Source: Eledone cirrhosa (Eukaryota). From it: a stretch of DNA of 64,000 bases. Position numbers and translations under genes: made by a program. The stretch is taken from the NCBI GenBank assembly GCA_964016885.1, contig OZ024755.1, positions 9,176,001-9,240,000 on the forward strand, written 5' to 3'. This document shows positions 9,205 through 61,292 of the stretch, in pieces (the stretch's first letter is position 1; each line of letters starts with the position of its first letter). The notes below the pieces were generated by a model. That model was given only the letters and a program-made list of their open reading frames with translations. It was not told the origin of the DNA and did not search any database.

Positions 9205-9208
<4 letters not shown>

Positions 9209-9395
9209 GAAGGAATTGGGGTAAGGAACCAGATGGACCATAACGCACCAGAGTACTCAATACTTAGGGTAGTAGAGTGGGTAATAGGAAAAAGTATGAC
9301 CCCGACGGCAGAGCTCAAGCCATTTCGACGGCTATTTCTAGAAATAGCCGTCGAAACGGCTTGAGCTCTGCCGTCGGGGCCATACGTTTTCCTAT
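9205..9395 (-). mobile_element. Fold-back element family A, copy 1, in a (TA)n array
   Basis: About 80 bp of single-copy part plus a palindrome with 56-bp arms (9284-9339/9340-9395, 3 mismatches, no spacer). Homologous to 33046-33240 and 51868-52064. Confidence 0.85.
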
Positions 9396-9800
9396 ATATA
9401 TATATATATATATATTAATTTGTTCGTTGTTAAAGTGCCTCGCATAAGGAACAGCTGTTGAGAACAAAAGCCAATCGTGCAGACAGCATATGTATATACA
9501 TCACCTACCCTTAGCCACTAAAATACTGCAATCGCTCGAATTTCTAGTTTCTTCTCATATCTACTGAAAAAAAAAATACATTTTAGTAGTCGTCGTGTTG
9601 ACAGTTGATGAAATATTTCTTCGCTTGTCTTATATATATATATACATATATATATGCATGTGTCTGTCTGTGTGTGTGTGTGTGTGTGTGTTTACAACAC
9701 CTAAGGTATCCAGGACAAAGATTTCAATGAAGGTTAGCTACATATGTGCGTATATGGCAGTAATATTTTAATCAGAAACAATAGAACTATTATATATATA

Positions 9801-9976
9801 TTGTTTCTACTATTGGCACAAGGCCAGCAATTACCCAGTACATTACTGGTACTTTATTTTATCGACCCCGTAAGGATGAAAGGTAAAGTTAACCTTGGCG
9901 GGATTTGAACTCAGAATGGCAAGGGCCGTAACTCTATGCGTCAAAGCATGGCGTCCGATCCTCTACCGATACTGCC

Positions 9977-9982
<6 letters not shown>
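9801..9982 (-). mobile_element. SINE family 1, young, near full length
   Basis: Reverse complement of the 1714-type element, embedded in (TA)n. Confidence 0.92.
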
Positions 9983-58636: not shown

Positions 58637-58919
58637 TGTGCGAATATGCGTGTATGTGTATTTATATATATATATGAGTGTGTGCCTGCATGTATATATA
58701 TATATAGTAATAATAATAAATGTGAAGACTAAAATCCGAAGAGGGCTCGATAAGGATAATATACATATAAAAATATATAAAACCATAGAGCAAATTAATC
58801 TGTTATTTTAATAAATATATAAATATATAAATGAACATATGTAAAAAACGCATATACAAACACTCTCATACCAGCCACATATATATACACATACACACTC
58901 ATGAATATGTGTGTGTGTG

Positions 58920-59078: not shown

Positions 59079-59202
59079 AGCTGGAACAAACACCGTAAAA
59101 TATTTTGTCTGTTTGATAAGTATATCTAAGATTACTATATATATATATATATATATATAGTAATAATAAATGTGAAGTCTAAACTCCGAAGTGCTCGATA
59201 AG

Positions 59203-59223
<21 letters not shown>

Positions 59224-61179: not shown

Positions 61180-61183
<4 letters not shown>

Positions 61184-61292
61184 TAAAAGGAAAAGAAAAT
61201 GCTGACAAATTGTTCCCAGTGAAAAATAGTTTAATTAGGAATAAGTAAAAATTAGTAATAAGTATTGGTTAGTATTCAGTTTTGGTTTTAAG
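61180..61292 (-). mobile_element. Second copy of the 31185-31296 element end
   Basis: Near-identical reverse complement, abutting (TA)n. Confidence 0.8.

Follow-up and report, generated by a model that had tools for sequence, protein, structure and literature searches.

A TA-Embedded Repeat Family with a One-Sided Tail and Mirrored Arms in Eledone cirrhosa, a Probable Penelope-like Stub

In insertions of Penelope-like elements (PLEs), an inverted, 5′-truncated copy can lie beside the main one, with a tail of 30-40 bp at one end; the Naiads, which include five cephalopod families, favor (TA)n targets, and some of them carry partial hammerhead cores (PMC8557442). Head-to-head junction palindromes and solo pLTRs are described from Adineta vaga (PMC3846280). 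The protein of the anole element Poseidon cuts and extends both target strands and uses two start sites on the RNA, the interval between them corresponding to the tail, and ribozyme cleavage is dispensable for this reaction (PMC11167929). According to a review, transcripts begin inside the upstream pLTR (PMC6765202). Hammerhead motifs set close together on opposite strands have been reported previously (PMC4209133; 10.64898/2026.07.22.740005), and a paper on the repeats of Octopus vulgaris counts 31 recently active Penelope-like families (PMC13282606). 

How PLEs form inverted ends and tails is still open: self-priming was proposed for A. vaga (PMC3846280), the Naiad study calls for mechanistic work (PMC8557442), and the anole study leaves the later steps unvalidated (PMC11167929). 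A family of short elements that combines very many junctions with two fixed starts and a single fixed stop would make fold-back and twin priming separable by copy counts within one assembly. Such stubs also bear on repeat annotation, where they resemble MITEs or microRNA hairpins. Here we analyze a family of this shape in a 64-kb stretch of the E. cirrhosa genome (hereafter the window). No published description of a TA-embedded family with a 78-nt tail and 56-bp arms was found in the accessible literature; the supplement of the O. vulgaris paper (PMC13282606), or its repeat library, may already contain the element.

Anatomy of the Repeat and Its Neighbors

Three copies of the repeat (c1, c2, and c3; Table 1) align from end to end at 86-94% identity. 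Each is an insert of about 190 bases in which a 78-nt unique tail leads into a palindrome; the arms measure 56, 56, and 57 bp and the centers 0, 5, and 5 nt in c1, c2, and c3, respectively. TA runs flank all three copies on both sides, as they do both loci with diverged relatives, against a background in which (TA)n runs of at least five units, with a margin of 3 nt, cover 16.8% of the window. The initial annotation of this DNA, which had recognized three copies with shared outer boundaries in (TA)n and palindrome arms of about 56 bp with junctions of 0, 5, and 5 nt, is thus borne out. The inverted repeat is not terminal, since the tail lies outside it on one side only; this is not the arrangement of a MITE with terminal inverted repeats. 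The whole unit has a predicted folding energy of -110 to -119 kcal/mol.

Table 1. Coordinates of the repeat copies, their parts, and other repeats in the window
Feature	Coordinates	Strand	Remarks
Copy 1 (c1), whole unit	9206-9395		
Copy 1, tail	9206-9283	-	78 nt, one end only
Copy 1, left arm	9284-9339	-	Contiguous with tail; minus strand presumed to be the RNA sense
Copy 1, inverted tail-less arm	9340-9395	+	0-nt center; 3 mismatches to left arm
Copy 2 (c2), whole unit	33046-33240		
Copy 2, tail	33046-33123	-	33046 is fixed TA-joined end 1
Copy 2, weak stem-loop in tail	33095-33118	-	A/C-rich loop; z -1.33
Copy 2, left arm	33124-33179	-	33124 is fixed TA-joined end 2
Copy 2, hammerhead-like 3′ half	33144-33166	-	GAAA, 4-bp stem, 9-nt loop with palindromic hexamer, UC
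Copy 2, center	33180-33184		Arm-ending hotspot across the family at 33178-33184
Copy 2, inverted tail-less arm	33185-33240	+	1 mismatch
Copy 3 (c3), whole unit	51868-52064		
Copy 3, tail	51868-51945	-	
Copy 3, left arm	51946-52002	-	Second subfamily
Copy 3, center	52003-52007		5 nt
Copy 3, inverted arm	52008-52064	+	4 mismatches
Old diverged relative	31408-31671		Tail, arm, spacer of ~70 nt, inverted arm, in (TA)n; arms ~80% alike
Diverged relative, single tail-less arm	48089-48155	-	Between TA runs; also at 48297-48359 and 48489-48551
Dispersed family of ~180 nt	24068-24246, 38460-38631, 26161-26337, 54683-54861, 1716-1898, 9800-9982, 14941-15105, 56879-57034		

The arm motif occurs 11 times in the window (0.04 expected), and the diverged relatives at 31408-31671 and 48089-48551 had previously been overlooked. 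The latter belong to a 192-bp tandem (48089-48680; 2.7 copies, 100% identical) made up of a diverged tail-less arm, a TA run, and a 75-nt island of unrelated sequence; the tandem is either a recent duplication or an assembly artifact. About 25 nt ahead of the 48089 copy lies a short interstitial TTAGGG run of three units and a variant (48038-48063).

An insert unrelated in sequence (32251-32510) has the same anatomy: a 40-nt tail, arms of about 106 bp with 104 of 110 positions paired, a short center, and (TA)n on both sides. The window scan found no hammerhead core in it. A second Penelope-like family is the likely source of this stub, whose presence suggests that the genome routinely produces the tail-and-palindrome shape.

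The window looks animal-like, with a GC content of 30%, many microsatellites, a SINE-like family, and the short TTAGGG run, and its DNA seems similar to that of octopuses. The SINE-like family is dispersed, about 180 nt long (82% mean column identity over eight copies, plus further fragments), and resembles a tRNA-derived SINE. Islands of 40-55 nt with a common core lie between TA runs (32948-33000, 36295-36350, 54217-54300, 58709-58746, 59160-59205, and 16528-16571) and are possibly another microsatellite-targeted stub. There is an imperfect inverted repeat, 81% alike over about 94 nt and lacking TA-run flanks, at 34557-34785, and an AT-rich stretch is present in opposite orientations at 31240-31342 and 61181-61292.

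The Family in Public Reads

At least ten public runs contain all or part of the stretch, three of them with half its words or more; none is recorded as RNA. Reads were mapped at 82% likeness to a 139-nt reference consisting of the tail, left arm, and center of c2 (33046-33184). This unit is matched by 22,347 of 12,467,656 reads in run X11 and by 26,169 of 12,647,150 in run X13, about 0.2% of the reads in both, as well as by 22,617 of 16,285,364 contigs in contig set X1; contig set X5, which carries another label, yields 45 of 8,254,286. RAD libraries carry biases, and contig depth does not translate into copy number, but the repeat family is clearly very large.

The reads reveal two alternative fixed ends joined to TA, at 33046 and 33124, and the interval between them is the 78-nt tail. 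The second is sharp, with a (TA)n consensus ahead of it in 3,795 reads of X11, 3,453 reads of X13, and 278 contigs of X1. Loose ends disclose additional subfamilies just inside 33124. Where reads become loose beyond 33174-33183, still inside the reference, agreement is only 0.40-0.48, so that no single upstream continuation dominates there. A drop in RAD depth at 33172-33176 was rejected as evidence of truncation: it coincides with an AATT site like that at 33054, where molecules end, and both are presumably restriction sites.

All junction counts rest on the 15 joints listed of 37. Fourteen of the 15 switch strand and represent 14 different inverted junctions. One end falls at 33178-33184 in 13 of these 14 and at 33172 in the remaining one, with the opposite end spread over 33098-33181. 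Under a rough uniform null the clustering at 33178-33184 has a probability of 3e-8, with the restriction that arms running past the end of the reference cannot be listed. By side lengths, the tail-bearing arm is the shorter in 12 of the 14 joints listed (one is symmetric, and one cannot be assigned), and in two listed joints the side has precisely the length of the whole tail-less arm (60 and 55 nt). Mapping favors this asymmetry, since tail-less arms below about 20 nt are invisible; four joints lie in the unbiased range, and in all three that could be resolved the tail-bearing arm is the short one. RAD reads, moreover, begin at fixed cut sites, several joints trace to a single start, and sequencing probably underrepresents perfect palindromes. 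In five of the 14 joints listed, the tail-bearing arm ends ahead of 33124 and so lacks the mirrored sequence altogether; as it now stands, such an arm cannot have templated its mirror.

The reads also account for the letters that the two arms share. The initial annotation held that c3 differs from the other copies at about five positions, each changed in both arms, and there are exactly five (c2 coordinates 33131, 33132, 33137, 33150, and 33175). A further eight differences are confined to one arm (three in c1, one in c2, four in c3), and none of these private changes is mirrored in the other arm. All five c3 letters are variants of the family at large, found by the thousands in RAD reads from more than 190 starts, with the exception of 33175; there the variant has at most 328 reads from 98-155 starts per RAD run, but T>A makes up 46% of the depth in X1. 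At 33131, A>C is carried by 7,842 of 10,443 plus-oriented X11 reads, and in X1 the share of the c3 letters extends from 1.4% (33132 A>G) up to 46%. Because the mirrored letters are common family variants and the private changes are never mirrored, the co-variation of the arms reflects the source subfamily rather than selection on a hairpin. There is no sign of conversion or selection keeping the hairpin matched after insertion, and the earlier suggestion of a hairpin retroelement under structural selection receives no support. Arms of c1 and c2 are 1-3 changes apart, and those of c3 lie 7-9 changes from c1 and c2 and 4 from each other. An arm tree of the three copies separates only the subfamilies and does not pair the c1 and c2 arms by locus.

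The Hammerhead-Like Motif

Each arm had been described as carrying the 3′ half of a hammerhead ribozyme. A motif of GAAA, stem, loop, stem, and UH is indeed intact in five of the six arms; the left arm of c3 fails. Among 5,000 shuffles the motif recurs in 3.5% under a loose rule, in 0.7% with the C11.1 rule, a better match than chance would give, and in 0.02% when the palindrome is required, the last condition having been chosen post hoc. GAAA and UC are among the 23 columns invariant across nine aligned rows from five loci (hypergeometric probability 0.003 over 56 arm columns, for rows that are not independent). Variants number 2 of 36 in the motif region and 18 of 103 elsewhere, a depletion that is not significant (p 0.06). 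A duplex of two copies formed through the palindrome is computed at -28 to -32 kcal/mol, and GAAA folds into a competing local hairpin. Either transcript of a palindromic copy is predicted to form one long hairpin, and the folds predicted for the whole sense strand of c1-c3 are no more stable than those of shuffles (z 0.1 to 1.4).

The 5′ half of the ribozyme did not materialize. A CUGANGA core with helix II is absent from both strands of the 64-kb window; GATGA lies upstream in the 48089 copy, with no helix II that pairs. Rfam returned 27 weak hairpin matches and no hammerhead for c2, and none at all for the 48085 copy; over the window, the 150 matches listed of 703 are all of microRNA type and below the gathering score. 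The identity of the motif as a hammerhead, suggested by its resemblance in sequence, is therefore unproven, and neither a new ribozyme nor a selected hairpin RNA is supported; the motif is useful in pointing toward a terminal repeat of a PLE.

The tail has a weak stem-loop of its own. All four listed positions that vary by at least 3% in X1 fall among its eight unpaired positions (chance 0.007, post hoc), and it is not reproduced in the 31458 relative. By analogy with the AC-rich loop of Poseidon PAc, it could serve in protein binding.

Origin of the Two Arms and Comparison with Known Systems

We consider it probable that the repeat is a stub, made by a Penelope-like reverse transcriptase (RT) that copies just the short end of its RNA, with the mirror arm produced anew at each insertion; its membership in the Penelope-like elements is likely, though unproven. 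In the proposed mechanism, the enzyme would nick both strands of a (TA)n tract, as the flanks of the copies suggest. One strand would prime cDNA at site 1 (33046) and the other at site 2 (33124), leaving the 78 nt between them as the tail, a scheme to which the two fixed TA-joined ends point. The site-2 cDNA would be extended until it met a fixed stop near 33178-33184, probably the RNA 5′ end inside the terminal repeat, and the site-1 cDNA would stop variably or at that same place; the junction pattern in the reads is consistent with such a stop, whatever its cause. The cDNA ends would then be joined head to head, often over 0-3 nt of shared letters, and where both cDNAs had reached the stop a full palindrome like those of c1-c3 would result. 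Both arms would bear the same subfamily letters because both would have been copied from the same source RNA. The enzyme, the priming, the cause of the stop, and the sense strand, which we infer from the motif and the tail, are putative elements of this scheme. The tail-less single arm at 48089 counts in its favor, and the tail of 78 nt, compared with the published 30-40, counts against it, as does the fact that asymmetric joints with one end at the center could also arise by deletion once the copy is inserted.

Searches for a coding partner were negative. There was no Pfam match to RT or GIY-YIG among 27 of the window's 164 open reading frame stretches, which gave one weak, unrelated match. 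A weak Pfam match to COX2_TM on the plus strand at 30534-30854 (E 0.00017, below the cut-off) lies in a frame containing a microsatellite and is probably an artifact of composition. An open frame of 45 residues is at chance level, being equaled in 40% of shuffles; protein searches with it matched none of 725 and none of 7 candidates, and two matches among representatives were to unrelated repeat proteins and were dismissed as spurious. DNA pattern scans found no viral, metagenomic, or prokaryote genome match, and 49 metagenome matches to an 18-mer, the best of 23-27 nt, were set aside as chance. In published consensus files for Naiad, Chlamys, and Hydra elements, a comparison limited by line breaks and divergence, exact short motifs were absent or in unrelated places.

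A Penelope-like stub might instead acquire its mirror arm by cDNA fold-back, which we think unlikely: the first cDNA would reach the hotspot, turn, and copy itself as far as a TAT microhomology with the target, the hotspot possibly being a natural hairpin such as hammerhead helix II and asymmetric copies being later deletions. Self-priming has been proposed for junction palindromes (PMC3846280), the 13 bp around the center would fit the long helix II, with its G-C closing pair, of minimal PLE hammerheads (PMC4209133), and the right arm of c1-c3 terminates in TAT adjoining (AT)n. However, the tail-less arm at 48089 begins at site 2, where there is no first arm to copy, and no back-pairing is seen in its sequence beyond the hotspot; five of the 14 joints listed have a tail-bearing arm devoid of the mirrored sequence; and 33177, the sole c3 mismatch that possibly marks a native helix, stays below 3% in X1. 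The right-arm mismatches of c3, once considered as a native helix II with a start codon, were dropped, both being below 3% in X1. Since in those five joints the tail-bearing arm ends ahead of what its mirror contains, the reads lean toward two separately primed cDNAs. The initial annotation had offered, as one of two alternatives, a PLE end with its second arm synthesized at each insertion by fold-back at a fixed hotspot; reads and literature together make this the best fit, with separate priming favored over the fold-back itself.

It is rather improbable that the unit is a non-autonomous hairpin retroelement whose tail and two arms are copied together from a small number of masters with matched arms, its varied junctions being deletions of the center after insertion. 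Such copying would account for the common outer ends and near-identical centers of c1-c3 and would suit the strong fold of the whole unit. Repair of a break at the center of a palindrome would leave one junction end at the center, which is where one end lies in the junctions listed, and the asymmetric joints could be explained by post-insertion deletions in this way too. Against whole-hairpin copying stand the eight private changes, none of them mirrored; the sharpness of the 33124 end, which thousands of reads show joined to TA and which contrasts with the variable truncation of a 5′ end; the differing centers of c1, c2, and c3; and the presence of relatives with a single arm or a long spacer. 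The possibility of a DNA-based element (MITE-like, Helitron- or HINE-like, or derived from another fold-back transposon) targeting TA repeats, with a ribozyme match due to chance, would suit the TA target, the long inverted repeat, and a motif short enough to recur under the loose rule with its GAAA in a competing hairpin, but is very improbable given a tail outside the inverted repeat on one side only and a family with variable head-to-head junctions and single-arm copies, which to our knowledge are not features of MITEs.

Within the preferred reading, a Penelope-like stub with two separately primed arms, we tentatively raise the possibility that the family is a Penelope satellite, non-autonomous and SINE-like, about 140 nt long and with a 5′ end that is fixed. 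It would have shed half of its hammerhead and multiplied to very high copy number within TA repeats, and its junctions would record twin priming, the copying of one RNA from two start sites on opposite strands of the target. If so, the satellite would let the step that produces inverted pLTRs and tails be read out across the genome.

The closest described systems can be compared as follows. Like EN+ PLE insertion units with an inverted pLTR and a tail (PMC3846280; PMC8557442), the present family has head-to-head truncated copies, a junction palindrome, an extension at one end, and an AT-rich or microsatellite target; unlike them, its observed copies have no ORF or direct pair of pLTRs, its tail is 78 rather than 30-40 nt, its arms stop at one fixed hotspot, and its copy number is very high. 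With the Naiad clade (PMC8557442, Files S1 and S5) it shares (TA)n targeting and inverted structures. Some Naiads carry hammerhead cores or half cores off the full fold (“HHR_core,” “HHR_half_core”; PMC8557442); in Naiads the half-core label denotes a CUGANGA box situated in the 3′ UTR and separated by 35-50 nt from its second half, whereas the present family has the GAAA side alone. By eye, the 3′ ends of Naiad_Obim and Naiad_Ovul are unlike the present family, with no exact motif in a comparable place.

Poseidon PAc of Anolis carolinensis (PMC11167929) resembles the family in its AT-rich target and in two fixed ends that delimit the tail, reverse transcription in PAc starting downstream of the hammerhead; it differs in having a complete hammerhead and an ORF that begins in stem II, compared with a chance-level open frame and no homologue here. 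The minimal type I hammerheads of metazoan PLEs (PMC4209133) have in common with our motif the GAAA, the C11.1 position, a palindromic helix III able to dimerize, and the UC site, but include the CUGANGA core and helix II that are missing here. Non-LTR retrozymes (10.64898/2026.07.22.740005) differ further, as the present copies form no head-to-tail array of ribozyme units: they are dispersed and inverted, and the sole tandem, at 48089-48680, contains TA runs, an unrelated island, and no complete motif. The shape is thus largely of a known kind, that of a Penelope-like insertion unit reduced to its ends, and what is unusual about it is the length of the tail, a stop at a fixed place, and junctions that are one-sided.
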